From Acidobacteriota bacterium (GTDB lineage: Bacteria; Acidobacteriota; Terriglobia; 2-12-FULL-54-10): a stretch of 54,459 nt of DNA. Positions 8,699 through 54,459 of the stretch are shown here, one piece after another (within the stretch, counting starts at the first letter, position 1; the number at the start of each line of letters is the position of its first letter). The DNA lies in contig JADFGZ010000001.1 in the NCBI GenBank assembly GCA_022567475.1, forward strand, positions 1 to 54,459, read 5' to 3'. The notes under the pieces are model-generated. The model was not told where the DNA came from. It did not search any database and worked only from the letters and a program-made list of their open reading frames with translations. Both the position numbers and the translations under genes were made by a program.

Positions 8699-8897
8699 AT
8701 CATCAGTTTCACAGTTCTTACTAGGGTCAGAGCCGCGCGCGTCAGCAAGCGGTCACAGAACGCCAAGTGGGCATCCAAAGTTGGGTTGACCGCTCCCTCG
8801 CGGCCCGGATGAATTCACCAGCAACACACTTTTCACCAACTTTGAAACTAAAGGCATCTCCAGTATTCGCCGATAAACTGAGTGAGAGGACATTGAG

Positions 8898-9422: not shown

Positions 9423-9505
9423 GACCGCTTGCCGTCCTTCTTACTTACTCTCTGGCTGAAGCTGTGAACAGAATAGGGACTTGAACTTACCTGTGGCTAG
9501 GCTAT

Positions 9506-9560
9506 GCCAGCAGGGGCCGCGAATTCAGTTGATGCGCGGCCGGCCTGCTGGCTGTTTCTT
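9506..9560 (+). terminator. Putative intrinsic terminator between convergent genes
   Basis: GCCAGCAGG+GGCCGCG (9506-9521) pairs with CGCGGCC(GG)CCTGCTGGC (9535-9552): 9 bp plus 7 bp with a 2-nt bulge and a 13-nt loop. It is followed by TGTTTCTT. Confidence 0.45.
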
Positions 9561-9567
9561 GATTAGA

Positions 9568-10542
9568 TTACTGCTGAATCTTCAGCGGAATGTTCAGCAG
9601 CATGGGTTCGCCCGGCTTGATCTCCAAGCGGTACATGGTTTGCGGAAGAGGCTCATCGTGCGTCAGCAGGCGTGTCCGGTCCGTGGCGGCTTCTTTCTCG
9701 GCTTTCGTGTAGGACTTGCCTATTTGCCCCCGCGCCTCCAGGCGCTGGACTTTGGAGCCCCAGCGATTTTCCCAAGCCACGACCTCGTCCTGTGTAAGCC
9801 GGAGCGGATCGCGCCGAATCCTCAGACCTGGCAGGGGATCGGGCGTTATCAGAATGGTCAACACTTCCGCTGTCTGATCGGGCCGGCTCGGCTGCATGGT
9901 GAAGTAGCGCGGACGGTCGTCCCAGGCGGGAATTTCAACCAGACGGCCAGCCACCACCTCGTTGTTGCCGCCGTGCGTCCGCAGGGTGGGGAAGATCAGG
10001 AAGGGAGTGCCGAAGGAGCCGTCTGCATACTGCTCCCGGTCGATCACATAGAGGTAGCCGGAGCGGGCCGCCTCGATGCTGACCCGTACCTTCTCTCCTT
10101 CCCGCAGCGGGGTCTCGGCCTCGATGCGCTCCGGGGTTAAATCCCCTCCCCCGTCCAGGGAGGAGATGCGCATGTCTTTGTCGTCCTCCGGGAGGGAGGG
10201 ACGCAGGCGCCAGACGGTGATGCCCACCAGCGAATCACCAGGGTCCTCTTCGCCCAACTGTAGCGGCGGGGCCGCCGGGGAGTTCGGCGCCGCCGTGGCC
10301 GTCGAAGTGGAAGTGGAGGCCGGTGTTGGCGCGGCGGGCCGCTTGGCGCGAAACGCCGTGTTCCACAGTTGCCGCGTGCGGTCTTCCGAGGACGTTTGCT
10401 GGGCTGCGGCGGGGGAATGCCCCAATGCCAATAGCAATACGAACGCTGCCGGTCCCAAAGCTCTGAAATCAACAAGGCTTGGTTTGTTTGTCATAATTGT
10501 GCCTCTTATTGGTTTTCCAATCATTGGGGGAATCCAATTCAA
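9568..10542 (-). CDS. Secreted DUF4384-domain protein
   Basis: Signal-like 'AAFVLLLALGHSPAAAQQ'. C-terminal module 'GEKVRVSIEAARSGYLYVIDREQYADGSFGTPFLIFPT...VVAGRLVEIP...EVLTILITPDPL' matches the DUF4384 pattern. The start overlaps the stop of the upstream kinase gene (10539-10542). Alternative start 10494. Confidence 0.7.
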   Translation of the reverse strand: MNWIPPMIGKPIRGTIMTNKPSLVDFRALGPAAFVLLLALGHSPAAAQQTSSEDRTRQLWNTAFRAKRPAAPTPASTSTSTATAAPNSPAAPPLQLGEEDPGDSLVGITVWRLRPSLPEDDKDMRISSLDGGGDLTPERIEAETPLREGEKVRVSIEAARSGYLYVIDREQYADGSFGTPFLIFPTLRTHGGNNEVVAGRLVEIPAWDDRPRYFTMQPSRPDQTAEVLTILITPDPLPGLRIRRDPLRLTQDEVVAWENRWGSKVQRLEARGQIGKSYTKAEKEAATDRTRLLTHDEPLPQTMYRLEIKPGEPMLLNIPLKIQQ

Positions 10543-12908: not shown

Positions 12909-13122
12909 AAAGAACTCCGGCGGTGAACGGCTCTGAATCGACGGCGAAGCCTTCCCCACCCTGGGGGGATATCTACTGATAATAAATCTCTTCAGCGAGC
13001 TTGACAAGAGGGACATTCGCGATCTTCTTTTCGGCGGTGCTCTTTACAGCACGCCGCCGGTCTGCTATTTTGCAGCCTTAGTTCTCGCATCTTGGGTTGT
13101 AGTGGTTGAGGACTGTTTAAAG

Positions 13123-16100: not shown

Positions 16101-17727
16101 TGGAACCAGCGTGGCGGGGACGGCGGAGGTGCCGCGCGTGGAGGTAACAGCGAACGCCGGCGGGCTGAGCGCGGGGCAGTACGGCGGGCTGATTCAGATC
16201 GACGCGCCGGGAGCGAGCAACTCGCCGCAGTTTGTGAGCGTGACGCTGAACGTGCTGGCGGCGGGAACCAATCCGGGGATTCAGGTGCGGCCGAGGGGCT
16301 TGATCTTCGTGCGGGAGGCGGGGACCTCCTCGCCGGGCTCGCAAACGGTGCAGGTGGCGACGGCGGCTCCGGGCAGCCTGGAAGTGGTGGCGATTCCGGG
16401 AACCTTCCAGGGTGGGAACTGGCTGGAGGCGGTGCCGAGGAACGTGACGTTCTCGGCGGGGGAACCGAGGACGATCACGGTGCAACCGAAACTGGGCACG
16501 CTGGCTGCTGGAGAATACTTCGGGGCGCTGACGCTGCTGTTCAGCGACCGGACGTCGCAGACGGTGAACGTGCTGTTTGTGGTGACACCGGCCGTAAGCC
16601 CGGCATCGGCGACGGTATCGAGCGTGGAACCGTTGCGCTCGCCCGGCGGTGCGGCGCAGCAGCATTGCGTAGCGCAGAAGCTGTTTACCACAGGCCGGAG
16701 TTTGGGAAGCAATTTTGCCTCGCCGGTGGCGTGGCCGAGCCGGATCGAGGCGCAGGTAAAGGATGACTGCGACAACCTGGTGTCGGATGCGGTGGTGGTC
16801 GTCAGTTTCTCCAACGGCGACCCGCCGCTGGCGCTGCTTCCCCTGGGCCGGGGGATCTATGAAGGCACGTGGAGGCCGGTGCAAAGCGGCGCGGTGCGGA
16901 TCACGGTGAGGGCCGAGCGGACGGCTCTGACGGCGGCGGAGGCGGTGCTGGACGGTCAGGTGACGGACAATCCGGCAGCGCCGGCGTTGTTTGCGGGTGG
17001 GATCGTGAACGCGGCGAGTTTTGCTCCGAACGAAGCGCTGGCGCCGGGCAGCATCGTCTCGGTGTTTGGGCGAAACTTGGCCGAGGGGCTGAACCTGGCC
17101 ACGGAGTTGCCGCTGAGCAGGAGGCTGGGCGGGGCGACGCTGGTGGTGGGCGGGATCGAGCAACCGCTGTTTTTCTCGAGCGAGGGACAGATCAACGCGC
17201 AACTGCCGTTTGATCTGCAGCCGAACAGCCGTCCGCAGGTGGTGGTGCGGACGCAGCGGGGAAGCGGGGCGGAAGTGATCGGGGTGCCGGAGCCGATCAC
17301 GATTGCGGCGGCTAGGCCGGGGATCTTTGCGCTGAATGCCGCGGGCACGGGCCAGGGGGCCATACTGATTGCGGCAACGGGAGAGGTGGCGGCGGCGAGC
17401 GGAAGCATTCCCGGGCGGGCGGCGCGGCCCGCCAACAGCGGAGATTTCCTTTCGATCTTCTGCACCGGACTGGGGGCGGTCACGAACCCGCCGGCGAGCG
17501 GAGCCCCGGCGGCAGGCGATCCGCTGTCGATAACGATGGCGACCCCAAGCGTAACGATAGACGGGGTGCCGGCGAGGGTGACGTTCTCCGGGCTGGCGCC
17601 GGGCTTTGTAGGGCTCTATCAGGTGAACGTGGAGGTTCCCCAGGAAGTCTCCCCCGGCGCGGCGGTCCCCCTGATGCTCACCATCAGCGGCGTCCCCTCC
17701 AACACCGTGACCATTGCGGTCGAGTAG
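13123..17727 (+). CDS. Giant secreted NHL-repeat protein: 12 NHL blades, about 4 BACON/Ig-like domains and a TIGR03437-like C-terminal domain
   Basis: Signal-like 'AVIVGLAALLFLAVPSLSRAQG'. Twelve repeats of '..GDGGPAT.A.L..P.GVAVDAAGNLYIAD..N.RIRKV...G.I.TVAG'. Four repeats of the type '...W.AQA.T..GG.WL.V.P..G'. Tail 'GIVNAASF...PGSIVSVFG.NL...GLYQVNVEVP...TISGVPSNTVTIAVE' is typical of the Solibacter-type C-terminal domain. Confidence 0.85.
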   Translation: MPRWQMHLSALIMLPRLKIAGGNLLCRAVIVGLAALLFLAVPSLSRAQGVISTVAGTTWSFSGDGGPATDAPLGFLRGVAVDAAGNVFAADSDNHLVVKISPAGVLTVVAGNGFAGYSGDGGPATSASLFSPFDVAVDSAGNLFIADRDNHLIRKVGADGMITTVAGVGLPDFFGDDGPALFAALDGPTGVAVDAAGNIYIADRNNNLVRKVGADGIITTVVGNGDFSFAGDGGLATDAALDPQGVAVDAAGNLYVADNVNARIRKIDTSSGIITTVAGTGEKGFSGDDGPATSAMLNIPNDVAVDGAGNLFIADLLNDRIRKVDLNGIITTVAGNGVDSFAGDGGPATAASLNEPDDMAVDAAGNLYIADTINSRIRKVASADGTIATLAGNNEFKFAGDGGPGTLAALDLPQGIAVDAAGNLFIADQENHRIRKLSPDGTITTVVGNGVFSFSGDGGQAVDASLGRPIDVAVDAAGNLYIAEKFNNRVRKVNTTGIITTVAGDGSFGFSGDGGQAINASLDTPLAVAVDGSGNLYISDNGNNRVRMVDANGIITTVAGNGDFFLIFDDPVPATSSEVDPLGLAIDAAGNLYIADNFNELVRKVDTGGIISTVAGDGFFGFSGDGGPATSASLNEPTDVAVDAAGNLYITDNFNERVRMVDTDGIISTVAGDGFSGFFGDGGSATSASLASPTGVAVDGAGNLYIAGSESDRIRKVSVAAPAFSVSPAQFSFSAPAGAPVGAAQQLAVGSSLTGLAWSAQAATQSGGNWLLLSPSLGAAPGSIDVSVDAGSLATGSYTGTVTVTAPGASPSTQVVAVDLTVTAAAAAELAVEPVAMTFEAASGFGNPPAQELRIGNAGGGTLNWTAQAATVAGGSWLSVSPVSGTASAISPAMVEISANVAGLAAPAVYSGSIVVEGGSSGTKTVAVTLLLTQATQTIQLSQSGLLFTGVEGGGVAPVQTFGIANAEQGTMSWTAQATTVSGGGWLTVTPASGTSVAGTAEVPRVEVTANAGGLSAGQYGGLIQIDAPGASNSPQFVSVTLNVLAAGTNPGIQVRPRGLIFVREAGTSSPGSQTVQVATAAPGSLEVVAIPGTFQGGNWLEAVPRNVTFSAGEPRTITVQPKLGTLAAGEYFGALTLLFSDRTSQTVNVLFVVTPAVSPASATVSSVEPLRSPGGAAQQHCVAQKLFTTGRSLGSNFASPVAWPSRIEAQVKDDCDNLVSDAVVVVSFSNGDPPLALLPLGRGIYEGTWRPVQSGAVRITVRAERTALTAAEAVLDGQVTDNPAAPALFAGGIVNAASFAPNEALAPGSIVSVFGRNLAEGLNLATELPLSRRLGGATLVVGGIEQPLFFSSEGQINAQLPFDLQPNSRPQVVVRTQRGSGAEVIGVPEPITIAAARPGIFALNAAGTGQGAILIAATGEVAAASGSIPGRAARPANSGDFLSIFCTGLGAVTNPPASGAPAAGDPLSITMATPSVTIDGVPARVTFSGLAPGFVGLYQVNVEVPQEVSPGAAVPLMLTISGVPSNTVTIAVE
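13267..15275 (+). repeat. Twelve tandem ~56-codon NHL repeat units (coding repeats)
   Basis: The core 'AVDAAGN[LI][YF]IAD' recurs 12 times at roughly 170-nt spacing, which would give two six-bladed propellers. Confidence 0.8.
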
Positions 17728-39107: not shown

Positions 39108-41414
39108 ATGCTATTGGCGGTTGCAGTCCTTTCCGGTTTTGTGATGGCGCTCGCTGCGCCGTGGCTGCACCGGATTGCGCGGAGCACTTCCGGGTGGGTG
39201 CTGGCGCTGTTTCCTGTGGCTCTGACTGTCTACTTCGCCGGCCAGGCGGGCAGGGTGGCGGCGGGCGAGGTTTTAGCGGTCAGCATCGATTGGGTGCCCA
39301 GCCTCGGCATCGCTCTGTCGTTCTACCTGGACGGATTGAGCCTGCTGTTCGCGCTGATGATCAGCGGCATTGGCGCGCTGGTGGTGGTCTACGCTGGCGG
39401 ATATCTGGCAGGGCACGCTCACCTGGGCCGGTTCTACGCCTTCCTGTTGATGTTCCTGGCCTCCATGCTGGGGCTGGTTCTCGCAAATAACGTGATCACG
39501 CTGTTCGTATTTTGGGAGCTGACCAGCGTAAGCTCCTATCTGCTGATCGGCTTTGAACACGAGAGGGAAGCGGCGCGGCAGGCGGCTCTGCAGGCGCTGC
39601 TGGTGACGGGGCTCGGCGGGCTGGCGCTGCTGGCCGGGCTGCTTTTGCTGGGGCAAGCCGGAGGAAGCATGGAACTCTCCGAGTTGCTGACCCGCGGAGA
39701 AGCGATCCAGGCGCACCCCTTTTACGCGCCGATTCTGCTGCTGATCCTGGCCGGCGCTTTCACCAAGTCGGCCCAGTTTCCGTTCCACTTCTGGCTGCCG
39801 AGCGCGATGGAAGCGCCCACGCCGGTCAGCGCCTATCTGCATTCGGCGACCATGGTCAAGGCCGGAATCTACTTGCTGGCGCGGTTCAACCCGGTGCTGG
39901 GGGGAACGGAGCTTTGGTTTTATATCGTCACCGCCGCCGGAGCTGCCACGATGCTGATTGGCGCATACCTGGCCTTGCAGCAAAGCGACCTGAAGCGAAT
40001 CCTGGCCTATTCCACCATGAGCGCGCTGGGAATGATGGTGCTGCTGCTTGGGCTCGGCACGGAGCTGGCCGTAAAGGCGGCTATTGTTTCGATACTGGTT
40101 CACGCGTTGTACAAAGGCGCGCTGTTTCTGGTTGCTGGGGCGGTGGACCATGAGACCGGCACGAGAGATGTGGACCGGCTCGGTGGACTGCGGCGCGCCA
40201 TGCCTATCACGGCGGCGGCGGCGGCGCTGGCCGCACTTTCCATGGCCGGGCTTCCGCCTCTGTTCGGCTTCATCGGCAAGGAGATGGTCTATGAGGCGGT
40301 TTTTGAAGCACCAACCGCTGTTGTTCTTTTGACCGGCGTGGTTGTCTTGTCGAGCATGTTCCTTCTGGCCGTGGCCGGCGTCGCAGGATTGCGGCCCTTT
40401 TTCGGAGAACGGGCCTCCACGCCCAAACATCCGCACGAGGCGCCGCTGAGTTTATGGCTCGGTCCATTCTTGCTGGCGGGACTGGGTTTGTTCAGCGGGC
40501 TGTTTCCGGGCGCCGCCGGATGGCTTGTTTCGCCCGCTGTCGCAGCCACCTGGGGGCAATCCACCGGCGTCGAGTTGGCGCTGTTTCATGGATGGAGTCC
40601 CGTGCTGCTTCTCAGCGCTATCACCGTCGCCGGAGGTCTCGGCCTTTTTGCCGGCCGTAGTGCATGCCGCCGGGCGGCGTCCCGACTCGCTATCGGTTCC
40701 CGGTGGGGGGCCACGCGTTGGTATGAACTGGCGCTCGATGGCATCAACAGGCTGGCTCGGGCGCAGACCCGCTTCCTGCAGAGTGGCTACCTGCGGTACT
40801 ACTTGCTGACGATCATCGCGACGATGCTTGGGCTGACCGCCTATACGCTGCTGAGCCGGGCCGGGCTGCCCGTTCCGCAGGGTAGCTTGCAGGTTCCCTT
40901 ATACCAAGCGGTCCTGGCGGGGTTGATCCTGCTGGCAGCCCTGGCGGCGGTGCGCTTGCAAACGCGTTTGGGAGCGGTGGCGGCGCTGGGCGTCGTCGGG
41001 TATGGCGTCGCTTTAATCTTTGTCTTGTTCGGCGCGCCGGACCTGGCGATGACGCAATTCCTGGTGGAGACGCTGACCGTCATTCTGCTGGTGCTGGTGC
41101 TGTATCACCTGCCGCGTTTCGCGACTCTTTCGACCAGGCGCGAGCGGGTTCGGGACATGGCGGTGGCGCTGCTGGCCGGAGGGTTGATGACGGCGCTCGT
41201 ATTGGCCGCTGCCGCGGTCCAACCCCAGCTTGAAGTTTCCTCTTATATGGCCGATCACAGCGCGGCACTGGCGCACGGGCGCAACGTGGTCAATGTCATC
41301 CTGGTGGATTTTCGCGGGCTCGACACGTTTGGCGAGATCACGGTTTTGGCCGTCGTCGGCATTGGAGTTTACTCGCTGCTCAAGCTGCGAATCCGGAAAG
41401 GAGACCGTCCGTGA
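39108..41414 (+). CDS. mrpA: Na+/H+ antiporter subunit A (MrpA/MnhA, NuoL-like with MrpB-like extension)
   Basis: 768-aa polytopic protein with NuoL/ND5-type motifs ('[14 protein letters not shown]', '[37 protein letters not shown]'). First gene of a seven-gene overlapping operon. Confidence 0.9.
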
Positions 41415-41824
41415 GTTCCCTGATCCTGCGCACGGCCACGCGTCTCCTGAAGCCGTTGATGCTGTTTTTTTCTGTTTTCGTGCTGCTGCGCGGCCATAAC
41501 GAGCCCGGCGGCGGTTTCGCGGGCGGGCTGATGGCGGCGGCGGCCTTTGCGCTCTATACCATCACCTTTGACGTGCCCTCGGCGCGCTCTGCGCTGCGGA
41601 TTGACCCGCACAATCTTGTCGGAGCGGGACTGCTGCTGGCTGCCATCAGCGGCGGCATTTCCCTCCTGCAAGGACGGCCCTTTCTGACCGGGCAATGGAT
41701 TGCCTTGCCTGTGCCCGGCGTCGGCGAGGTGGCTCTGGGCACGGTGCTTTTGTTTGATACCGGCGTCTACATGGTGGTGCTGGGCGTGACCTTGCTGATT
41801 ATCTGGTCGCTCGCGGAGGAGTGA
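41411..41824 (+). CDS. mrpB: Na+/H+ antiporter subunit B (MrpB/MnhB)
   Basis: 137-aa, 4-TM protein with '[16 protein letters not shown]'. GTGA overlap with mrpA. Confidence 0.85.
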
Positions 41825-41825
41825 G

Positions 41826-42173
41826 ATGAACACCTGGATGGCATTCGTCATTGGCGGCCTCTATGCCGCGGGTTTGTACATGATGATGCGGCGCAGCATC
41901 GTGAAACTCATCATCGGCCTGGCGCTGCTGAGCCATGCGGCGAACCTGCTGATCTTCACGGTGGGCGGGCTCACGCGCGGGCGGCCTCCTCTGATCGCGG
42001 CGGGGGAAACCAGCCTGGCGGCTCCTTTCGCGGATCCGATCCCCCAGGCGCTGGTTTTGACGGCGATTGTCATCAGCTTTGGAGTCCTGGCGTTCGCGCT
42101 GGTGCTGGTGCATCGCACCCACCAGACGGTCGGCACGGACGACCTCGACAACTTGAAGGCGACCGATACATGA
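41826..42173 (+). CDS. mrpC: Na+/H+ antiporter subunit C (MrpC/MnhC, NuoK-like)
   Basis: 115-aa, 3-TM protein with '[10 protein letters not shown]' and '[16 protein letters not shown]'. Confidence 0.85.
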
Positions 42174-43705
42174 ACGTGTTGTTGGTGCTCCCTATATTAA
42201 TTCCGTTGGTGACGGCAGCCGTCTCGTTGCTGGCCTGGAGGCGTCCGCGCTGGCAACGCTGGCTGGGCATTGGCGGAGCGGCCGCGTTGCTGGCGGCCAG
42301 CTTGGCGCTGCTCGAAAGCGTCCGGAACGGCGGCATCCAGACAGCCCAGATGGGAGACTGGCCTGCTCCTTTCGGCATCACTCTGGTTGCCGACCTGTTT
42401 TCCGCGATCATGGTGGTGATGGCCGGGTTGGTGGGTTTCGCGGTGGTGGTGTACTCTACCGCCACCGTGGATCACCGGCGGGAATCGTTCGGGTACTATC
42501 CGCTGCTGCACATCCTGCTGATGGGCGTCTGTGGCGCCTTCCTGACCGGCGACATTTTCAACCTCTATGTATGGTTTGAAGTCATGCTGATCGCCTCCTT
42601 TGTGCTGCTGGCGCTGGGCGGGGAGCGCGAACAGTTGGAAGGCGCCTTCAAGTACGTCACGCTCAACCTGATGTCCTCGGCGTTGTTTCTGGCGGCGGTG
42701 GGAATCCTCTACGGCGTGGCGGGCACGCTGAACATGGCCGACCTCGCCCGAAAGCTGCCCCAGGTGGAGCAATCCGGTTTGGTGACGACGCTGGCGATGC
42801 TGTTCCTGGTGGCGTTCGGCATCAAGGCGGCGGCCTTCCCCTTGTTCTTTTGGCTTCCGGCTTCCTATCACACCCCGCCGGTTGCCGTGTCGGCCCTCTT
42901 CGCGGGCCTGCTGACCAAAGTCGGCGTGTACGCGCTGATCCGCGTTTTCACGCTGCTCTTCACGCAGGAGGTATCCTATACCCACACGCTGATCCTGGCC
43001 GTGGCCGGCCTGACCATGGTGACGGGTGTTCTGGGGGCGATGGCGCAAAATGAATTCCGGCGCATTTTGTCGTTCCACATCGTCAGCCAGATCGGATATA
43101 TGTTGATGGGTTTGGGGCTGTTCACGGTGGCGGGACTGGCCGGCTCGATTTTCTACATCATGCATCACATCATTGTAAAAACGAATTTGTTCCTGATTAG
43201 CGGTGTGGCGAATCATTTCAGGGGCACGTACCAGTTGAAGGAGCTGGGAGGACTCTACCGCGCCTACCCCGGCTTGGCCGTCTTGTTCCTGATCCCGGCG
43301 CTGTCGCTGGCGGGTGTCCCGCCGCTGTCTGGGTTCTTTGCGAAGCTGGGGCTGCTCCAGGCCGGATTGGCAACCGGGCAGTACGCCATTGTTGCCACGG
43401 CGTTAGGCGTCAGCTTGCTCACTTTGATTTCAATGACCAAGATCTGGGCGGAGGCTTTTTGGAAACCTGCGGCCGCACCGTCCGTAGACCCGCCTGCCGC
43501 CGGGACGGGAACGCCGCAGGATCCGTCCCAACATGATCCGCCCAAAGGGAGTCTCGCTTTGTTCGCGCCCGTGGTCGTATTAGCGGTTTTGACGCTGACC
43601 ATGGGGTTGGTCGCCGAGCCGTTCGTCGGCCTGGCGATCCAAGCCGCCCATCAATTGATGAATCCGGCTGGCTACATCGAGGCTGTTCTGGGAGGCCGGC
43701 CATGA
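42170..43705 (+). CDS. mrpD: Na+/H+ antiporter subunit D (MrpD/MnhD, NuoN/M-like)
   Basis: 511-aa polytopic protein with '[15 protein letters not shown]' and '[40 protein letters not shown]'. ATGA overlap with mrpC. Confidence 0.9.
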
Positions 43706-44187
43706 GCGCGTTTCTGTGGAACCTCCTGCTGGCAATTATCTGGGTTGCCTTGACGGAGCAATTCACTCCGGGGAACCTGATGGTCGGCTTCGGATTAGGC
43801 TACCTGATTTTGGCCTTTGCGCAACTTGTCATGGGGAAGGAGAAGGGGAAGTCGAACTACGTCTCCAAGGTGCGACAGGTTTTCGGATTTGCTCTCTATT
43901 TCCTGTGGGAGCTCGTTCTGGCGAACCTCCGGGTGGCTTACGACGTGGTGACGCCGACTCACCACATGCGGCCGGGGGTGATCGCGATCCCGCTCGACGC
44001 ACGAACCGACGCAGAGATCACTGTGCTGGCCAATTTCATCACGCTTACGCCCGGCACTCTCAGCCTGGACGTGTCGGAGGATCGCAAGGTGCTGTATATC
44101 CACGCCATGTACATTCATGACCGCGAAGCGCTCCGGCGCGAAATTAAGAGCGGGCTGGAACGGCGGGTTTTGGAGGTGATGCGATGA
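43702..44187 (+). CDS. mrpE: Na+/H+ antiporter subunit E (MrpE/MnhE)
   Basis: 161-aa protein with '[13 protein letters not shown]', '[24 protein letters not shown]'. ATGA overlap. Confidence 0.85.
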
Positions 44188-44471
44188 CTCCCGGTGAGCT
44201 GGGACCGCTTTCGACCGCGATTCGTGTGGCGTGGGTCATGCTGAGCGCGGGCCTCGTGCTGGCTTTTTTTCGCCTGGTCCGAGGGCCCAGTCTGCCGGAC
44301 CGTGTGGTCGCGCTGGACCTGACGGCGACCCTGGTGGTGGGAATGATTGCCGTGGATGCCATTGCCAGCCACCAGCCGGTGATCCTGGACGCTGCCATCG
44401 TCGTTTCCTTGGTCGCCTTTGTAGGCACGGTGGCCTTTGCCCATTACGTGGAAAAGAGAGGGTCGGAATGA
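44184..44471 (+). CDS. mrpF: Na+/H+ antiporter subunit F (MrpF/MnhF)
   Basis: 95-aa, 3-TM protein with '[17 protein letters not shown]'. ATGA overlap. Confidence 0.85.
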
Positions 44472-44908
44472 GGGAAGCAATTGCAGCCGTTCTGATCGTC
44501 ATCGGCGCAACCTTTATGCTGCTGGCTGCCATTGGCATCGTTCGCATGCCGGACCTGTTTACCCGAATGCAGACGGCCACCAAGGGAGGCAGTCTGGGCG
44601 TCGTCTGCACATTCCTTTCCGTGGCGGTTTACTTTGGAGAATTTGCCGTCACCTCGCGGGCTCTCCTGATTATTGCTTTTTCCTTCTTGACCGCGCCGGT
44701 AGCGGCCCACATGATTGCGCGGGCGGCATATTTCGTGGGCTACCGGTTGTGGGAGGAGACGGTGATCGACGAGTTGCGCGGCCACTACGACCTGCGCACG
44801 CACGCTTTGGACAGCGGCGCCTATGAGGTCGTCGGACGGAAGCCGAAGACCGAGTTGCCGGACTCCGGCGCAGCGAGCGGTGGAAAAGCGAATGCTGAAA
44901 AAGAGTAA
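44468..44908 (+). CDS. mrpG: Na+/H+ antiporter subunit G (MrpG/MnhG)
   Basis: ATG 44468 overlaps the mrpF stop. 'IGATFMLLAAIGIVRMPDLFTRMQTATK', 'FLTAPVAAHMIARAA'. The longer ORF from 44231 is an out-of-context extension. Confidence 0.85.
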   Translation: MREAIAAVLIVIGATFMLLAAIGIVRMPDLFTRMQTATKGGSLGVVCTFLSVAVYFGEFAVTSRALLIIAFSFLTAPVAAHMIARAAYFVGYRLWEETVIDELRGHYDLRTHALDSGAYEVVGRKPKTELPDSGAASGGKANAEKE

Positions 44909-45789: not shown

Positions 45790-47175
45790 ATGACCCAATC
45801 ATACATTCTGCGACAGAATAGAGGCATTGTTGCGATTCTGGCTGTCGTAACCGCAGTAGCCGCCTGGGTGCTATTTGCCGGGAAAGCGAAACCGCAGGAA
45901 TGGAACCGAGCATCCGAGACCACTGTGCGAAGACCCACTGGTTTTCCGCAACTGGTCTCCCAGGAGCCATTGCCGGGCATGGATGGGATGATGTGCCAGT
46001 GGGAGCCCGTCAGTGCCAGCGCCACTTTGTTGGCTGCTCTTCGGCAGGAGCAAACGGCGGCTGGCACGGCGGCGCCGGCCGGGGATGCTGATCGAGCCCC
46101 TTTGCGGGTCATACGGGATAGTTATCCAACCTATAGCGCCGTAGCAGTCGATACCAATTCCAATGAAGTCTATCTCCAGGATGAAAACCTGTTCGGCTAC
46201 AAGGTCTTCAACCGGCTGGACAATACTCCTCCCTCGGCCAGTTTTACCGAGCCCAAACGTATGGTCGGGGGATTTAATACCAAGCTGGAGTTCAACTGCG
46301 GGCTTTACGTGGACCCGGAGACCGGGGATGTCTATTCGGTTGCCAATGATACGGTCGACACGCTGGTCATCTTTCCTCGCGACGCCAGGGGGAACGTGGC
46401 TCCCAAGAGAGCGCTGCGAACCCCGCACGGCACCTTCGGCATCGCCGTGGATGAGGGGAACCAGGAGTTGTTCCTCACGATCGAGCATGACAATGCGGTG
46501 GTGGTGTATCGCAAGATGGCCGAAGGGGATGAAGCCCCCCTCCGCCTCCTCCAGGGAGACCGGACTCGCCTGGCAGACCCCCACGGGATTGCAGTGGACA
46601 CGAAAAACAATTGGATGTTTGTCAGCAACCACGGCTCGGTTCATCAAGACCGTGCCGGTGGAGGGTCTGTGCCGCCGAACTGGCCGCTGGGGACGGATGT
46701 ACGCGGCTCCGGAAAGTTTTTGCCTCCCTCGATTTCGGTCTATCCCCTCAAAGCGAGCGGGGACACTCCTCCGCTGCGTGTTATCGAAGGCCCCAATACG
46801 CGGTTAAACTGGCCGGCAACGGTGTCCTTGGATCAGGAGCGCGGGGATCTCTACGTTGCGAACGATGCCGATGACTCGGTCCTGGTCTTCCGCACGACCG
46901 ATCACGGCGACGTGGCCCCCAGGCGGGTCATCAAAGGCCCCCAGACAGGCATCAAGAATCCAACGGGCGTGTTTGTCGACCTGAAGAACGAGGAGCTGTG
47001 GGTGTCCAATATGGGCAACCATTCGGCCACGGTCTATCCTCTGTCGGCGAATGGCGATGTCGCGCCGCTGCGGACCATCCGTAGCGCGCCGCTCGGCAAG
47101 CTGGCGCTGGCGATTGGAAATCCCGGAGCGGTAGGCTATGACAGCAAGCGGGAAGAAATTCTAGTGCCGAACTGA
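45790..47175 (+). CDS. Membrane-anchored beta-propeller repeat protein, N-terminal part (7 repeats), ending at in-frame TGA; probably continuous with 47176-48003
   Basis: TM anchor 'GIVAILAVVTAVAAWVLFAG'. Seven repeats of the type 'G[DN]VAP.R.I.GP.T.[LI]..P.G[IV].VD....E[LI][FWY]V.N'. The TGA at 47173-47175 falls mid-repeat. Confidence 0.75.
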   Translation: MTQSYILRQNRGIVAILAVVTAVAAWVLFAGKAKPQEWNRASETTVRRPTGFPQLVSQEPLPGMDGMMCQWEPVSASATLLAALRQEQTAAGTAAPAGDADRAPLRVIRDSYPTYSAVAVDTNSNEVYLQDENLFGYKVFNRLDNTPPSASFTEPKRMVGGFNTKLEFNCGLYVDPETGDVYSVANDTVDTLVIFPRDARGNVAPKRALRTPHGTFGIAVDEGNQELFLTIEHDNAVVVYRKMAEGDEAPLRLLQGDRTRLADPHGIAVDTKNNWMFVSNHGSVHQDRAGGGSVPPNWPLGTDVRGSGKFLPPSISVYPLKASGDTPPLRVIEGPNTRLNWPATVSLDQERGDLYVANDADDSVLVFRTTDHGDVAPRRVIKGPQTGIKNPTGVFVDLKNEELWVSNMGNHSATVYPLSANGDVAPLRTIRSAPLGKLALAIGNPGAVGYDSKREEILVPN

Positions 47176-48003
47176 GTGGCCCACCCGCAGATTGCGGCCT
47201 TCACCAGGCTGGCGAAGGAAAATGAAGCGCCCACGAGGCTGATAGCCGGACAAAAAACTCTGCTGGCCCGCACGATGCACGACATCCGCTACAACGCGAT
47301 CCATGATGAGTTCGTGGTGAACAATCCCTTTGCCCAGGCGATCCTGGTGTTCCGGGGAGGAGCGGATGGGGAGGAAGCGCCGATTCGGGTCATCCAGGGT
47401 CCCAGCACGCAGTTGAGCGGGTCAAGCCGGCTGGAAGTGGATGCTGTGAACGACGAAATCATCGTTCCCGGGGGAGATAGGATTTTGGTTTATCCCAGGG
47501 AGGGGAATGGCGATGTGGCTCCCATTCGAGTGCTCCGTGGTCCCGATACCCAGTTGAGGGGCGCCCAGGCGGTTGCCGTCGATGCAGTCCGCAACTTGCT
47601 TGTGGTAGCGGTCGGCAATCAGCGACGGAGGGGCGAAGGGCCCACGGGGTCTCTGTTGATATTCAACCGTACGGACAGCGGAAACGTCAAGCCGCGTGCT
47701 GTGATCACGGGTCCGAAGACGGGCATCATCCGGTTCAACCAGATTCGCGTTTACCCGCCGAAAGGCTGGATCATCGCGACTCAACCGGGACCCCGTGACG
47801 ATCAGGAGCCGGAAGGCACTTTCGTTGGTGTTTGGAGCATCAACGACAACGGAGACGTTCCGCCCCGCTGGAAGATTGGAGGACCAAAGAGCACGCTGAA
47901 GAAGCCCCGTGGAGTGGCTCTTGACCCCAAGAATAAAGAACTCATTGTTGCGGACATGAGGTTGAACTCCGTGCTGATCTACTATTTCCCGGAAATATTT
48001 TAG
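47176..48003 (+). CDS. Beta-propeller repeat protein, C-terminal part (5 repeats of the same family); same frame as and contiguous with 45790-47175
   Basis: Starts (as GTG) at the codon directly after the TGA, with no obvious Shine-Dalgarno. Repeats 'GEEAPIRVIQGPSTQL', 'GDVAPIRVLRGPDTQL', 'GNVKPRAVITGPKTGI', 'GDVPPRWKIGGPKSTL' continue the upstream series. Confidence 0.7.
   Translation: MAHPQIAAFTRLAKENEAPTRLIAGQKTLLARTMHDIRYNAIHDEFVVNNPFAQAILVFRGGADGEEAPIRVIQGPSTQLSGSSRLEVDAVNDEIIVPGGDRILVYPREGNGDVAPIRVLRGPDTQLRGAQAVAVDAVRNLLVVAVGNQRRRGEGPTGSLLIFNRTDSGNVKPRAVITGPKTGIIRFNQIRVYPPKGWIIATQPGPRDDQEPEGTFVGVWSINDNGDVPPRWKIGGPKSTLKKPRGVALDPKNKELIVADMRLNSVLIYYFPEIF
47185..47217 (+). promoter_or_regulatory. 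Two stem-loops 10-45 nt downstream of the in-frame UGA (SECIS-like/recoding candidate), copy 1
   Basis: Hairpin 1: CCGC-AGAUU-GCGG (47185-47197). Hairpin 2: CUUCACC-AGGCU-GGCGAAG (47199-47217), a 7-position stem with one A/C mismatch. The G-containing apical loop starts 31 nt after the UGA. Folded by eye only. Confidence 0.4.
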
Positions 48004-48528: not shown

Positions 48529-50292
48529 ATGGAGATGGCTAAAAAAATTGCCAGGACTATCCGTATGGGGGCGTTTTGTTGGTTGCTGTCGATCAGTGTT
48601 TCCTACGCGCAACAAGCCTTGGTGGTTCGCGGAGGAACTTTGATAGACGGAAACGGCGGGGCTCCGTTGGAGAACGTGGACATTCTGATCGAGGGGGATC
48701 GGATCAGCGAAATCCGCATTGGCGGATTCAGCCGTGTCCCTCCCAACGCGGAGATCATTGACGCCCGTGGCAAGTTCATCCTGCCGGGCCTGCAAGATTT
48801 TCATCTGCATTACCGGGGTTGGATGCCTCCCTTGTTTATCAATCACGGCATCACCACCATCCATGACATTGGGAATAGCCCTCCGCAGTGGATCCTGGCT
48901 CAGCGCGAGATGCTCCAACAAGAAAGAATTGTAGGGCCCCGACTCTATGCGGCTGTCCTCAATTTATACGGGAGGCCCCGAAGGGATGTTGCCATTGAGA
49001 GCAGACTCCCGGATATGATTTTTTTCGAAACGGTGGCAGAAGCCAGGTCTTGGGCGGAAAAAGCCGTGGAGTTGAAAGCCGACTACATCAAAGTTCACGA
49101 TGGATTTACAGGCGAGATGTTATTAGCCGTGGCGCAAGTGGCCAAACAGCATGGTCTGCCCATTGTGGGGCATGTTGCCCCCGTGCTCGACGCCTTTCAA
49201 GCGGCGGAACTTGGTCAAAATGAATTTGAACACAGTACAGGGGTCGGCCGGGCCATTACACTGGATTTGGATGAGTTGCGCAGCTTGAGGAAGGAATGGG
49301 AGGAGGCTCTGATAGGAAGAGCGCGAACCGTTTTCGAGGCTTTGGCGGTGGATTTTTACAGCGTGGATCCAGTCAAGGAAGAACGGCTCATTCACGTTCT
49401 GGTTGAGAAAGGTATTTTTCTCGAAGCGGATTGGGTGACCCCTTCCCGGAACATCACCCCCCGAAAAAAAGAGTGGGCGTTTCAGGACCTGGTGTTTTTT
49501 TCCAACCCGGAGCTGTCCTTTGTCCCCTTGGGTGACCGGCTTCGCTGGCTGGATTATTCTCCTTGGGAACATTTTTCTGAGGATTTGAAAGCCAAGTTGA
49601 TTCGCAGTTTGGCGAACTGGAAAAATTTCATCGTCAAATTTTCCGCAGCGGGCGGCAAGGTAATCGTAGGGACCGCTTCGCCCAACGCCATCCCTGGAAT
49701 CAGTGTTCACAGGGATATGCAGTTGCTGGTGGATGCGGGACTGCCTCCGATGAAAGCGCTTCAGGCGGCCACCCGGAATATTGCCGAGTTGGCGGGACTG
49801 TTGGATGACCTGGGAACCGTCGAGGCAGGGAAATATGCAGACCTGTTAATCATTGACGGAAATCCGTTGGAAGATATTTCCAACACTCAGAAAATAGCCC
49901 ACGTCATCAAGGGCGGAAAAAAAATTGACCGGCGATATTCTGCCGATTTCAGAAATCCGATTCCCACGCCCGTGATGGTCGATGAAGGCGGCCATAACAA
50001 TCCAAAGCCGGCCATTACCGGGATGGACCCGGCCGTTTTCACTCAGGGCGATCCAGAAACAGTCGCCGAGATCAGGGGGAGAGGGTTCACGATAGGTTCT
50101 GTTGCCTACGTCAATCATCATGCCGTCCGGACGAAATTCAAAAGCCCGGAACTGCTGGAAGTGGTGCTGTCTTCAACCCTCTTATCACAGGTGGGAACCT
50201 ATCCTGTTCAGGTGATTAATCCGCATCCGTTGCCCCCGCTGGAAAATGCAGGGGATTCAAATAAATTGATGGTCATCGTTAAATTCCGATAG
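48529..50292 (+). CDS. Secreted metal-dependent amidohydrolase with C-terminal IPT/TIG-like domain
   Basis: Signal-like 'MGAFCWLLSISVSYAQQ'. 'VVRGGTLIDGNGG', 'LPGLQDFHLH' (HxH metal motif), 'AATRNIAELAGL', 'GTVEAGKYADLLIIDGNPLEDI'. The last ~100 aa resemble an Ig-like IPT domain ('ITGMDPAVFTQGDPETVAEIRGRGF...GTYPVQVINP'). Confidence 0.8.
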   Translation: MEMAKKIARTIRMGAFCWLLSISVSYAQQALVVRGGTLIDGNGGAPLENVDILIEGDRISEIRIGGFSRVPPNAEIIDARGKFILPGLQDFHLHYRGWMPPLFINHGITTIHDIGNSPPQWILAQREMLQQERIVGPRLYAAVLNLYGRPRRDVAIESRLPDMIFFETVAEARSWAEKAVELKADYIKVHDGFTGEMLLAVAQVAKQHGLPIVGHVAPVLDAFQAAELGQNEFEHSTGVGRAITLDLDELRSLRKEWEEALIGRARTVFEALAVDFYSVDPVKEERLIHVLVEKGIFLEADWVTPSRNITPRKKEWAFQDLVFFSNPELSFVPLGDRLRWLDYSPWEHFSEDLKAKLIRSLANWKNFIVKFSAAGGKVIVGTASPNAIPGISVHRDMQLLVDAGLPPMKALQAATRNIAELAGLLDDLGTVEAGKYADLLIIDGNPLEDISNTQKIAHVIKGGKKIDRRYSADFRNPIPTPVMVDEGGHNNPKPAITGMDPAVFTQGDPETVAEIRGRGFTIGSVAYVNHHAVRTKFKSPELLEVVLSSTLLSQVGTYPVQVINPHPLPPLENAGDSNKLMVIVKFR

Positions 50293-50387: not shown

Positions 50388-51725
50388 ATGCACCGGAGAA
50401 TTTATTTGCGGCCAAGGGTCGCCGTAGTCGTGTTGATGGGCTGGTTGGGCGTCTTCGCCGTTTGGGTGCTCCTCGCCGGGCAGGCGAAACAGCAAGGGTT
50501 CAGCAACGCATCCGAGGCCGCTTTGCGAAGACCCACGGGTTCTCCCCAACTGGTCTCCGTCGAGCCGTTGCCGGTGGCGGACGGACAGATGTGCCAGTGG
50601 GTTCCCGCCAGCGCCAGCACAACCCTGGTGGCTGCGCTTCGGCAGGAGCAACCGGCGGCTGGCGCGGCGTCGTCCGTGGATGCCGACCGAGCCCCTCTGC
50701 GGATCATCCGGGATACCTATCCGACCTACAGCGCCATCGCAGTCGACACCAATACGGATGAGGTCTATCTGCAGGACGAGAATCTGTTTGGCTACAAGGT
50801 CTTCAATCGCCTGGACAATACCCCGCCCAACGCTAGCTTTACTGAACCCAAGCGTATGGTGGGGGGAATCAAGACCAAGCTGGAATTCAATTGCGGCCTG
50901 TACGTGGACCCGAAGACGGGAGACGTTTATTCGGTCAACAACGACACGGTGGACACGATGGTCGTCTTTCCTCGCGACGCCAGGGGGAATGTATTGCCCA
51001 AGCGAGAGCTAAAAACCCCGCACAGGACCTGGGGTATTGCGGTGGATGAGGAGGCCCAAGAGCTTTTTCTCACGGTCGAGGAGCCTCCCCAAGTGGTGGT
51101 CTATCACAAGATGGCTCAGGGAGACGATCAGCCCATCCGCGTCCTGGAGGGGAACCGCACGGAGCTTGAGGATGCCCACGGCATTGCCATTGACACGAAG
51201 AACAATTGGATGTTTGTCAGCAACCACGGCAGTGTCAACGACGGCGGGATTGCCGGTTCCGGCAGGTTTGAACCTCCCTCGATCACGGTCTATCCGCTGA
51301 GGGCGAGCGGGAACACTCCTCCGCTGCGTGTCATCGAAGGTCCCAATACGCGGTTAAACTGGCCGGCAGCGATGTCGCTGGATCAGGAGAACGGGGAACT
51401 CTACTTGGCGAACGATGCCGAGGACTCCATCCTGGTCTTCGGCACGACCGATAGCGGCAACGTGGCCCCCCGGAGAGTCATCAAAGGCCCCAAGACGGGC
51501 ATCAAGAACCCCACAGGCATCTTTCTCGACTCGAAAAACGATGAGGTGTGGGTCTCCAATATGGGTAACCACACGGCTACTGTCTATCGGCGGACGGCGA
51601 GCGGCAACGTCGCGCCGTTGCGCACCATCCGCAGCGCGCCGCTGGGCAAGCGGGCCTTGGCGATTGGGAATCCGGGGGCCGTGGGCTATGACAGCAAACG
51701 GGAAGAGATACTGGTGCCGAACTGA
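50388..51725 (+). CDS. Paralogue of 45790-47175: membrane-anchored beta-propeller protein, N-terminal part, ending at in-frame TGA
   Basis: Collinear with copy 1 (same TM anchor, 'CQW' and 'LEFNCGLYVDP' cysteines, same seven repeats) with a short deletion relative to copy 1. TGA at 51723-51725. Confidence 0.75.
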   Translation: MHRRIYLRPRVAVVVLMGWLGVFAVWVLLAGQAKQQGFSNASEAALRRPTGSPQLVSVEPLPVADGQMCQWVPASASTTLVAALRQEQPAAGAASSVDADRAPLRIIRDTYPTYSAIAVDTNTDEVYLQDENLFGYKVFNRLDNTPPNASFTEPKRMVGGIKTKLEFNCGLYVDPKTGDVYSVNNDTVDTMVVFPRDARGNVLPKRELKTPHRTWGIAVDEEAQELFLTVEEPPQVVVYHKMAQGDDQPIRVLEGNRTELEDAHGIAIDTKNNWMFVSNHGSVNDGGIAGSGRFEPPSITVYPLRASGNTPPLRVIEGPNTRLNWPAAMSLDQENGELYLANDAEDSILVFGTTDSGNVAPRRVIKGPKTGIKNPTGIFLDSKNDEVWVSNMGNHTATVYRRTASGNVAPLRTIRSAPLGKRALAIGNPGAVGYDSKREEILVPN

Positions 51726-52550
51726 GTGGCCCACCCGCAGATTGCGGTCTTCGCCAGGCTGGCGAAGGAGAATTCAGCGCCCACAAGGCTGATTGCGGGA
51801 CAAAAGACGCTGCTCGCCCGCACTATGCACGACATCCGCTATGACGCGATCCATGATGAATTCTTGGTGAACAATCCTTTTGCCCAGGCGGTCCTGGTGT
51901 TCCGGGGAGGAGCCGACGGCGAGGAAGCGCCAATCCGGGTGATCCAGGGTCCCCGCACGCAGTTGGGGTTTTCCGGGCGGCTGGACGTGGATGCGGTGAA
52001 TAACGAAATTTTCGTTCCCGGAGGAGACCGGATTTTAGTCTATCCGCGCGAGGGAAATGGCGATGTGGCTCCCCTCCGCGTGATCCGCGGGCCGGACACG
52101 CTCTTGCGCAGCGCCGGAGCGCTCGCTGTCGATCCTGTCAATCATTTGCTTGTGGTAGGCACCAACAGGGGGTTTGCGAGGGGAGAAGGGAATGGGTCGC
52201 TGTTGATCTACAACCGCACGGACAACGGAAACGTCAAGCCGCGCGGTGTGATCGAAGGCCCCCAGTCGGGCATCATACGGATCAACCAACTCCAAGTGTA
52301 TCCACCCAAGGGCTGGATCGTGGCGAGCCAGCCCGGTGTGGGCTACGAGCAGGAGCCGGAAGGCGCTTTCATCGGCGTGTGGAGCGTGAACGATAATGGC
52401 GACGTGCCGCCGCGCTGGGTGATCGGAGGACCGGAAAGCACCTTGAAAAAACCGCGCGGGGTAGCTTTAAACCCCAAGAATAAAGAGATCATTGTTGCCG
52501 ACATGCGGCTCAACGCCGTGCTGACGTACTATTTTCCGGAAATTTTTTAG
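51726..52550 (+). CDS. Paralogue of 47176-48003: beta-propeller C-terminal part, contiguous and in frame with 50388-51725
   Basis: 274 codons collinear with copy 1. Same first residues 'VAHPQIA.F.RLAKEN.APTRLIAGQKTLLARTMHDIRY' and same C-terminus 'YYFPEIF'. Confidence 0.7.
   Translation: MAHPQIAVFARLAKENSAPTRLIAGQKTLLARTMHDIRYDAIHDEFLVNNPFAQAVLVFRGGADGEEAPIRVIQGPRTQLGFSGRLDVDAVNNEIFVPGGDRILVYPREGNGDVAPLRVIRGPDTLLRSAGALAVDPVNHLLVVGTNRGFARGEGNGSLLIYNRTDNGNVKPRGVIEGPQSGIIRINQLQVYPPKGWIVASQPGVGYEQEPEGAFIGVWSVNDNGDVPPRWVIGGPESTLKKPRGVALNPKNKEIIVADMRLNAVLTYYFPEIF
51735..51767 (+). promoter_or_regulatory. Stem-loops downstream of the in-frame UGA (SECIS-like/recoding candidate), copy 2
   Basis: Hairpin 1: CCGC-AGAUU-GCGG (51735-51747). 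Hairpin 2: CUUCGCC-AGGCU-GGCGAAG (51749-51767), a perfect 7-bp stem with a 5-nt loop containing GG. Confidence 0.45.
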
Positions 52551-52853: not shown

Positions 52854-54459
52854 CTACTCACTGGGGAAATTGACAATGAAGTATGCCGCGTTGGAGGGGC
52901 TCCCCCCGGAGCCGGGATTCACGGCCGTCACCGCGTAAGTACCCACGTTTCGCAAGAGCGCAGCATCCACCGTTGCCGTCAAGAGGGAATTGCTGACGAA
53001 CGTTGTCGGCAGGTCGGTCGTGTCAAAGCGGATGAAAGACCGCGGGTTAAATCTCTTCCCGGTTACCTGAACGGTCACTGCTGTATCGCCGGCCCGCGCT
53101 ATTCCTGGTGTGATGCGTGAGATTTCCGGCCCCAGATATTCGAGCGGAGTATTTGCATAGGTCGTGCGCGGCAAGGGGTTGCGGAAATTCGGGTCCAAAC
53201 GAGTGTCTAAGACCTTGCCGTCGAGGATCACCGTGCGAATATTCTGAGTGACGCGGATGTCCGCCAACGGATCCCCTTCAATGATAATCAGGTCGGCGAG
53301 CTTTCCGGGCTCCACAGTCCCCAGATCGTTCTCCTGACGCATAAACTCCGCCGACCACTTTGTAGAAGCCAGAATCGCCTGCATCGGAGTCAGGCCCGCA
53401 TTCACCAGGGCCTCCATCTCGACATGCATCGCTAAGCCGGCAATGTTGGTCGCGCTGGACCTGGCGCCGGTGTCCGGACCGGTGAGCACCTTGCCGCCCG
53501 CCTGGACAAACCTCCGGATAAATTCCCGAATCTTTCGGAGAGATTCCGTGCTTTGTTGTATGTCTTCTCCCGTGTCGGCGGCCTTTACCGCATTCAGCCA
53601 GTGCTCGCGTCGGGCCTCAGTAATGAACCGTGCGGAAGGGTCTTCTAATAATTTCACCACCACGTCGTACCACTCGCGGCTCTCTGGCCGGGGCCGGGTC
53701 AGGGTGGGATTGAAATAGACTCCATTTTTTACCATCAGGTCAATGAGAGGGCCGAACAACGTCGTGTCCATCTCCGCCTGCGAGTCCGGGAGTCTTCCTT
53801 CTTCCATAGCCTGAATCTTTGCCGGGTCTCCCAGCGTGGAGTGGACAACCGTCCGCGCGTGCTCAATGAACTTCATGCCAGCCAGTGTGGCTTCCCGCGC
53901 ATCCACCGCGTGGCCGACCACCTCCAACCCGGCTTTGTGTGCTTCCTCAACCACGGCTTTCAGGGATTCGGTGCTTAGGCCTTCGTAAACCTTGATCCCA
54001 TCCACGCCCTGCTGGATCAGCTTCCGGGTGGCCAACCGTGCTTCCTCTACATTCCGTGTATGGATCCGATAGGCTGCCCGCGCCGCGAAAGTAATCGGAT
54101 TGCTGCGTTCCGGCGGTCCATCAATGATCGCTCCAGTCACGAACAGGCGGGGACCTTTAATCTTTCCTCTTTGCAATGCCTCGCGCTGAGCCAGAATCCA
54201 GTCTGTGGGATTAGCCGTATCGAAGATCGTCGTCACACCATAGTGCAGGAAAAGCGGGGGCATGTAGGCCGAAATATGGACGTGGGCATCGATGAGTCCA
54301 GGGAGCACAGTTTTTCCTTCCGCCCGGATCACTCGCGCCCCGGCGGGATAAGATACATTTCCCTTGGTTCCAACCGCTTTGATCCGGGAGCCCTCAATCA
54401 CAATGACCGAATCTTGGATGGGGTCACGACCGGTTCCATCAATTAGGGTCCCTCCCTCG
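52854..54459 (-). CDS. Metal-dependent amidohydrolase with C-terminal IPT/TIG-like domain (5' end beyond window)
   Basis: 'LPGLIDAHVHISAY' (HxH), 'VVGHAVD', 'GTVEPGKLADLIIIEGDPLADI'. C-terminal 'ISRITPGIARAGDTAVTVQVTGKRF...GTYAVTAVNPG'. The reading frame stays open to the window edge (reverse complement of the edge reads '...RGGTLIDGTGRDPIQDSVIVIEGSRI'). Confidence 0.8.
   Translation of the reverse strand, partial: EGGTLIDGTGRDPIQDSVIVIEGSRIKAVGTKGNVSYPAGARVIRAEGKTVLPGLIDAHVHISAYMPPLFLHYGVTTIFDTANPTDWILAQREALQRGKIKGPRLFVTGAIIDGPPERSNPITFAARAAYRIHTRNVEEARLATRKLIQQGVDGIKVYEGLSTESLKAVVEEAHKAGLEVVGHAVDAREATLAGMKFIEHARTVVHSTLGDPAKIQAMEEGRLPDSQAEMDTTLFGPLIDLMVKNGVYFNPTLTRPRPESREWYDVVVKLLEDPSARFITEARREHWLNAVKAADTGEDIQQSTESLRKIREFIRRFVQAGGKVLTGPDTGARSSATNIAGLAMHVEMEALVNAGLTPMQAILASTKWSAEFMRQENDLGTVEPGKLADLIIIEGDPLADIRVTQNIRTVILDGKVLDTRLDPNFRNPLPRTTYANTPLEYLGPEISRITPGIARAGDTAVTVQVTGKRFNPRSFIRFDTTDLPTTFVSNSLLTATVDAALLRNVGTYAVTAVNPGSGGSPSNAAYFIVNFPSE

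Follow-up and report, generated by a model that had tools for sequence, protein, structure and literature searches.

Does a UGA codon that lies between two open halves of a conserved β-propeller gene end translation, or is it decoded? The question is raised by a 54,459-nucleotide (nt) stretch of an Acidobacteriota bacterium (GenBank assembly GCA_022567475.1, contig JADFGZ010000001.1, positions 1 to 54,459), here called the window. In this window, an open reading frame (ORF) of 445 amino acids (aa) that ends in TGA (50388-51725) is followed directly and in frame by a GTG-started ORF of 274 aa (51726-52550). A paralogous locus has the same layout (ORFs 45790-47175 and 47176-48003); we refer to this paralogue as copy 1 and to 50388-52550 as copy 2 (Table 1). 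A sequence-only reading of the window had drawn attention to the TGA at 51723-51725 and the GTG behind it, with both halves open in both copies, and had proposed that an RNA recoding signal surrounds the stop codon. The layout is present as described, and we refine the recoding, which that reading left unnamed, to what is most likely the insertion of selenocysteine (Sec). We propose, at a probability of roughly 0.87, that 50388-52550 is a single gene encoding an exported tandem β-propeller selenoprotein of about 720 residues.

Conservation on both sides of the UGA

In a codon-aware alignment of 45790-48003 against 50388-52550, the two copies are 78.0% identical in nucleotides and 75.3% identical in amino acids, in agreement with the earlier by-eye estimate of three-quarters. 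The scattered substitutions described at that stage are confirmed; what had been taken for a short in-frame indel proved to be 17 gapped codons distributed over several gaps, with 15 of the 17 in one loop region. Comparing copy 1 with copy 2 by the Nei-Gojobori method, the ratio of non-synonymous to synonymous divergence (dN/dS) is 0.24 upstream of the TGA (0.17 without the N-terminal leader) and 0.174 downstream. Purifying selection is equal before and after the TGA, and the downstream value is not near 1, as it would be if that half were drifting. The longest identical run between the copies is the 34-nt block GTGCCGAACTGAGTGGCCCACCCGCAGATTGCGG, which starts at 51714, surrounds the TGA and had been picked out from the sequence; the next-longest runs measure 30, 27, 25 and 22 nt, and about 0.1 run of 34 nt would be expected under a uniform identity of 78%. 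Judged on the copy pair alone, the identity peak at the TGA is real, as a modest excess over other conserved patches. The lowest synonymous divergence of the gene is found in the 20-codon window that starts at the TGA, where the proportion of synonymous differences (pS) is 0.073 against a typical 0.3-0.7.

The same TGA recurs in related genomes. Scans of one-genome-per-species contigs and JGI metagenomes yielded 159 related loci, and with the window included the motif codon is TGA at 172 sites and TGC at 3. The downstream frame is intact, with a median of 275 codons, in 143 of the 144 sites that have both ends inside the locus, and the intact frames end with the family C-terminus FPE[ILM]F. 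An in-frame stop, taken alone, might suggest that the gene is a pseudogene, that the sequence is in error or that TGA has been reassigned throughout the genome; we regard all three as refuted and assign them a negligible probability. The downstream dN/dS of 0.17, the two diverged paralogues and the related loci that keep both the TGA and the downstream frame contradict decay or error; the sequence-only reading had likewise argued against simple pseudogenisation. Code reassignment is excluded because TGA serves as a normal stop elsewhere in the window, for at least 12 further ORFs, of which several have Pfam domains that fit the ORF ends (e.g. MNHE).

Cysteine at the UGA position of full-length homologues

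A search with the read-through protein found 3481 relatives, which fall into two populations. Short proteins of 445-470 aa are 65-91% identical to the query and reach no further than its first 60%; long proteins of 700-770 aa, with about 50-63% identity, span 93-99% of it. Forty-four of the 45 aligned full-length proteins have cysteine (Cys) exactly at the TGA position, within the motif ILVPN-C-V[AS]HPQIA, and this correspondence between Cys and UGA reads as the classic Sec/Cys signature. The short proteins are short because gene callers stop at the Sec codon, and the NCBI records of the N-terminal half are entered as 'hypothetical protein' with 450-470 aa. When the C-terminal half was searched against the whole library, 4388 cluster representatives were found at E <= 1e-3 and 290 at E <= 1e-30; many of them are stand-alone ORFs of about 274 aa that start at residue 1 or 34 of the half, and these are split annotations. 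Since gene callers split the genes of this family, hundreds to thousands of database entries would be truncated. The best relatives come from metagenome-assembled genomes (MAGs) of Terriglobia, at 70-74% identity, and from one metagenome contig (L001) at 91%.

The separate annotation of the halves by gene callers and NCBI, as 445-470-aa proteins and stand-alone ORFs of about 274 aa, would also fit two separate genes, in which the UGA terminates a 445-aa fragment, the GTG re-initiates a 274-aa fragment and the two products assemble non-covalently. The Cys homologues, however, are single polypeptides, and together with the codon, RNA and structural evidence presented below this makes split genes very improbable.

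The remaining full-length protein (P0001, from a 2.6-kb contig of JGI 3300071358) is recorded with tryptophan (Trp) at the Sec position. Such a record would fit a programmed read-through of the UGA without selenium, in which a near-cognate tRNA (Trp, Cys or Arg) decodes the codon under stimulation by the downstream structure, and the inserted residue is not identifiable from sequence. However, the Trp of P0001 is probably due to gene calling with a different genetic code (TGA=Trp). With Cys in 44 of the 45 full-length relatives, and given the hairpin and the gene neighbourhood described in the following sections, we rate this explanation just as improbable as split genes.

A two-hairpin RNA element downstream of the UGA

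The family consensus from the UGA onwards is UGA GUG GCN CAY CCG CAG AUU GCG GNN UUC GCC AGG NUG GCG RAN, in which two hairpins are predicted: a small one, CCGCA-GAU-UGCGG, at positions 13-25 and the main one, N-UUCGCC-AGGNU-GGCGRA-N, at positions 27-45. In copy 2 the main hairpin has the perfect 7-bp stem that had been noted before (8 bp when the closing A-U pair is included), an AGGCU loop that starts 30 nt after the UGA, and a folding energy of -10.7 kcal/mol. The published model of the bacterial Sec insertion sequence (bSECIS) specifies a loop of 3-9 nt with G in the first two loop positions, an upper stem of 4-16 bp, a UGA-to-loop spacing of 16-37 nt and a minimum free energy of -7.5 kcal/mol or lower (PMC13188914). 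The main hairpin of copy 2 lies within every one of these limits, and in 76 of 84 family members the energy is -7.5 kcal/mol or lower. This agreement with a SelB-type element, including the GG of the loop and the spacing, speaks against read-through without selenium. No place in the window other than the two UGA sites shows the hairpin pattern, for which 0.13 chance occurrences would be expected.

Three independent lines of evidence indicate that the constraint acts on the RNA and not on the protein alone: (i) Covariation of paired positions. Across 84 distinct sequences, 92.9% of cells are paired. Pair 27-45 is CG in 33, AU in 12, GC in 10 and UA in 6 sequences; pair 30-42 is CG in 80 and UA in 4, a double synonymous switch (TTC to TTT together with GCG to GCA); and pair 31-41 is GC in 79 and CG in 2, here through two amino-acid changes. 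The observed covariation values were reached by none of 500 shuffles and by no slid control. Covariation support is weak for the small hairpin, which folds at -5.3 kcal/mol and has mostly invariant pairs with only 2 doubly changed cells. (ii) Freezing of synonymous codons. The loop arginine, Arg+11, is encoded by AGG in 161 of 168 sites, against 6.2% of the Arg codons in the same genes (Fisher p ~1e-171), and the invariant Arg+21, ten codons further on, uses all six codons. Likewise frozen are Pro+4 (CCG, 164/172), Ala+7 (GCG, 161/172), Ala+10 (GCC, 162/172) and Ala+13 (GCG, 162/172). Elsewhere in the family genes the same amino acids have mixed codons, so that synonymous freezing is confined to the element. 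(iii) Coupling to the UGA. Seven Cys forms have TGC at the DNA level (L059, L080, L137 and L161-L164), and six of the seven have lost the hairpin. The Arg of their F-A/S-R-L-A peptide is encoded by CGC, CGG or AGA in five and by AGG in two, and the median hairpin energy is -3.5 kcal/mol in TGC forms versus -9.05 kcal/mol in Sec forms. Both types occur on a single contig (L161), where the Cys form lacks the hairpin and the hairpin of the Sec form is perfect.

Covariation, codon freezing and the loss of the hairpin in most TGC forms bear out the earlier suggestion that the island of nucleotide conservation is the trace of an RNA recoding signal. Re-initiation at the GTG would account neither for a covarying hairpin with a GG loop 23 nt further on, nor for the loss of this hairpin where the codon is TGC, nor for the neighbouring genes for Sec synthesis and insertion, to which we now turn.

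Sec machinery and the proposed decoding

A contig of the Terriglobia MAG MFD03726.bin.1.138 (L050, positions 1-12097) carries a TGA-type family gene (4527-6275 + 6276-7100) between the N-terminal part of selB (2-1177, minus strand) and a divergent selD/selA pair (9292-10587 and 10367-11836). E. coli SelA, SelD and SelB sequences were used as queries for leads only, and the identifications rest on NCBIfam equivalog scores, which are 511 bits for SelD (cut-off 299), 577.5 bits for SelA (cut-off 268) and 360 bits for SelB (cut-off 242); the SelD is of the Cys type (HGGGCGCK). This contig is possibly a selenium island that links the family to the Sec machinery, and the presence of selA, selB and selD around a family member is a further argument against read-through without selenium. 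Acidobacteria are known users of Sec (PMC1794560; deep-Sep paper, Table 2). The machinery is thereby documented for the family, through L050, and is presumed for the genome from which the window comes.

On these grounds, we infer that selenium is incorporated at the UGA. A ribosome arriving at the UGA (51723-25) would meet SelB with GTP and Sec-tRNA(Sec), tethered by the stem-loop at 51749-67, to which SelB is presumed to bind and whose GG-containing apical loop begins 30 nt downstream of the UGA. Sec would then be inserted in place of termination and translation would run on to the TAG at 52548-50, with the small hairpin (51735-47) probably setting the geometry of the spacer.

Several observations weigh against this account. 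GTG directly follows the TGA in 77 of 84 members, which would also fit re-initiation; the other seven, however, have GTA, GTC or GTT, which are not start codons, and no Shine-Dalgarno-like sequence is seen by eye in the roughly 18 nt before the GTG. The main hairpin of copy 1 contains an A.C mismatch (GCC to ACC, Ala to Thr), folds at only -5.3 kcal/mol and thereby falls outside the bSECIS energy range; decoding of copy 1 may be less efficient than that of copy 2. One family member (L080, site 9375; ENA contig_6349; P0008) has TGC with both hairpins intact, at -8.4 and -5.3 kcal/mol, so that the hairpin is not strictly tied to the UGA; most simply, this is a recent change from Sec to Cys that has left a fossil SECIS. 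Pfam searches of 30 other ORFs of the 54-kb window gave an Mrp antiporter operon, amidohydrolases, a giant NHL protein, kinases and others, and no sel gene. ARAGORN found no tRNA in the window, tRNA-Sec included, and no tRNA-Sec in 60 related loci; none of the loci retrieved showed a tRNA-Sec. Finally, the fold is not a known redox fold and has no assigned cofactor or substrate. With Rfam, the window produced no hit at gathering thresholds, nor did L050 at E <= 0.1. To our knowledge, Rfam has no model for bacterial SECIS elements, and because of this the Rfam result says little.

Predicted fold and the surroundings of the proposed Sec residue

For the structure we used a model of a Cys homologue with 61% identity (P0002) in place of the window protein. 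The model (pLDDT 86.9, pTM 0.83, with low confidence in the first ~100 residues) contains 12 four-stranded blades in tandem, and the Sec/Cys lies in blade 7 between its second and third strands (443-448 and 454-459), directly after the strand EILVPN. The sequence-only reading had described the two ORFs as a propeller pair. The two-ORF layout stands, and the TGA as a divide between propeller domains does not, given that it falls inside one blade of the homologue model. Since the fold is confidently modelled, the halves are not independent domains, and a break at this point is difficult to reconcile with two separate genes.

The densest cluster of invariant residues surrounds Sec/Cys446 and comprises D435, R438, H449, R457, R467, Q472, R478, H481, Y485, D490 and E491. 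The only other conserved Cys of the family belongs to an N-terminal C-x-W motif, found in 89% of the 45 full-length homologues and in the N-terminal segment of 101 of 142 Sec forms; in copy 2 it is Cys69, a candidate resolving partner of the Sec. The hydrophobic N-terminus read off the translation implies that the protein would be exported. In Pfam, the read-through protein matches NHL at 32.5 bits (cut-off 20) and Lactonase at 24 bits (cut-off 21.7), and 41-43 of the 45 full-length homologues match NHL/lactonase-type models. Foldseek against the PDB returned only generic tandem WD40 matches with TM-scores of about 0.3, and a profile search against PDB sequences returned only repeat-level NHL/lactonase matches; neither gave a functional analogue.

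Genomic context and possible function

Recurrent neighbours of the family are TonB-dependent-type outer-membrane barrels (32 loci), amidohydrolases (20 loci, with the order amidohydrolase then propeller also found in L001), small c-type cytochromes (13 loci), a DASS-type symporter (10 loci) and a sulfite-oxidase-like molybdenum-cofactor enzyme (4 loci). An apparent operon around one Cys form (P0108; L163, 278-7202) encodes a TonB-dependent receptor, a cytochrome c, two copper chaperones (a PCuAC-like protein, PF04314, and SCO1/SenC) and a 162-aa ORF, followed by the propeller gene with an overlapping start. This operon, a single case, hints at a copper or redox function.

Most likely, the protein would be a periplasmic enzyme and the Sec its catalytic redox or metal-binding residue, although this is the weakest part of our account. 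The Sec/Cys-His centre would then act either as a nucleophile with redox activity or as a ligand to a metal, and its partner in a redox cycle may be the N-terminal Cys or a c-type cytochrome.

Hosts and paralogy

The hosts are nearly all Terriglobia/Acidobacteriota MAGs (Solibacteraceae, Bryobacteraceae and Ca. Sulfopaludibacter). A few Binatia bins (L039, L058 and L061) and one Verrucomicrobiia bin (L042) also contain TGA-type members that share this SECIS, as a result of either horizontal transfer or mis-binning. Paralogy of the Sec-type genes is extreme, both tandem and dispersed: the 3.76-Mb chromosome OZ240237.1 carries at least 11 copies and the MAG JACPPJ01 at least 14, where the counts per genome are lower bounds obtained with the best 80 loci, and one locus (L033) has four Sec-type copies within 12 kb.

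Relation to known selenoproteins and propellers

The family resembles bacterial genes with an intragenic SECIS, of which E. coli fdhF is the prototype, in having an in-frame UGA, Cys counterparts and a stem-loop directly downstream within the coding sequence. The small apical loop with GG closed by an A-U pair is likewise shared (A-GGN-U here, A-GGUC-U in fdhF), the spacing is within the 16-37 nt of bSECIS genes, and selA, selB and selD are present in a member genome. There are also clear differences from fdhF and its type. From the UGA to the start of the loop there are about 18 nt in E. coli fdhF and 30 nt here, where the spacer contains a second conserved hairpin of 13 nt; the sequence of the element hardly varies throughout a very large family of paralogues; and the host protein is a β-propeller, not a Mo/W or thioredoxin-type enzyme.

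Like catalogued selenoprotein families, the propellers have a single Sec, Cys homologues and a conserved U-x-x-H-P motif (compare UHxP of FdhA). None of the 119 families in the 2026 catalogue (PMC13188914, Table 1) is a β-propeller, NHL or lactonase-type protein, and none has PN-U-VAHPQ. In NCBIfam no family scored above threshold, the sole match being 6-phosphogluconolactonase at 15.8 bits against a cut-off of 370, and the BSepDB and deep-Sep papers do not mention the family. A full-text search of the literature, covering open-access papers only, found no relevant paper, and a prior description elsewhere is possible. The insertion mechanism is that of the known bacterial Sec system, and it is the family that appears to be unrecorded.

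With the NHL, lactonase and SGL propellers (PF01436, PF10282 and PF08450; for example YbhE, 1ri6, and the NHL domains of TRIM2/3), the family shares repeat-level similarity and four-stranded blades. It differs from them in its 12 blades in tandem, its signal anchor and its Sec/Cys-x-x-His centre, and the PDB profile search found no solved relative of the family beyond the repeat level. We lean, by a narrow margin over even odds, towards an uncatalogued selenoprotein family, possibly among the largest, that consists of exported 12-blade propellers with a Sec-x-x-His centre and a near-invariant two-hairpin SECIS, present in soil and groundwater Terriglobia with at least 11-14 Sec paralogues per genome.

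If this is correct, these bacteria would be among the most selenoprotein-rich known, and the selenium demand of a dominant soil phylum would have been strongly under-estimated. The 2006 survey counted 3 selenoprotein families and 4 selenoproteins in Acidobacteria (PMC1794560). The propeller family would add at least 11 selenoproteins per genome in some Terriglobia, which implies a substantial unrecognised selenium requirement. The structural setting of Sec would also be new, and probably its chemistry as well: Sec would work in a periplasmic site for redox reactions or for a metal (possibly copper), with c-type cytochromes and TonB-dependent uptake to serve it. Sec is found as a ligand at metal cofactors too, in FdhA and the [NiFeSe] hydrogenases. 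Most characterised selenoproteins have thioredoxin-like folds, as reviewed in the literature, and a Sec-His site on an exported β-propeller would be a new enzymological context. The natural Sec, Cys and fossil-SECIS variants offer ready comparisons, and with its short length, near-invariance and covariation support the element would be a convenient model SECIS for a non-proteobacterial SelB.

Feature coordinates and other genes of the window

Table 1 Features of the two propeller genes, in window coordinates
Feature	Coordinates	Strand	Details and basis
Copy 2, proposed single recoded gene	50388..52550	+	720 sense codons; N-terminal part 50388-51722, Sec codon 51723-51725, C-terminal part 51726-52547, TAG stop 52548-52550; ORFs and translation, dN/dS, full-length Cys homologues
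Proposed Sec codon, in-frame UGA	51723..51725	+	Motif ILVPN-U-VAHPQIA
Small 5' hairpin CCGCA-GAU-UGCGG	51735..51747	+	In the spacer between UGA and main hairpin; fold, frozen codons
Main hairpin CUUCGCC-AGGCU-GGCGAAG, candidate bacterial SECIS	51749..51767	+	Fold, bSECIS criteria, covariation
Hydrophobic N-terminal signal/anchor segment	50388..50480	+	Residues 1-31, MHRRIYLRPRVAVVVLMGWLGVFAVWVLLAG; read off the translation
Cys69 in C-x-W motif	50592..50594	+	Column conserved in homologues
Copy 1 (paralogue)	45790..48003	+	UGA 47173-47175; small hairpin 47185-47197; main hairpin 47199-47217

Scanning for promoters and terminators revealed no promoter-like site on the plus strand between the halves and nothing terminator-like at their junction, and a search of a plasmid collection gave no match. 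Copy 2 is flanked on either side by amidohydrolase-family genes (48529-50292, plus strand, and 52854-54401, minus strand). Directly upstream of copy 1 lies a Mrp/Mnh-type multisubunit cation/proton antiporter operon (39108-44908, plus strand) with fused MrpA/B-like, D, E and G subunits. Another propeller gene of the window (13102-17727, plus strand) encodes a 1541-aa protein with many NHL/teneurin-NHL repeats and a BACON domain; its propeller family is a different one, and no in-frame TGA interrupts it. The minus strand at 9568-13016 encodes a Ser/Thr protein kinase that has a cyclase-like region and DUF4384, adjoining a second DUF4384 protein.

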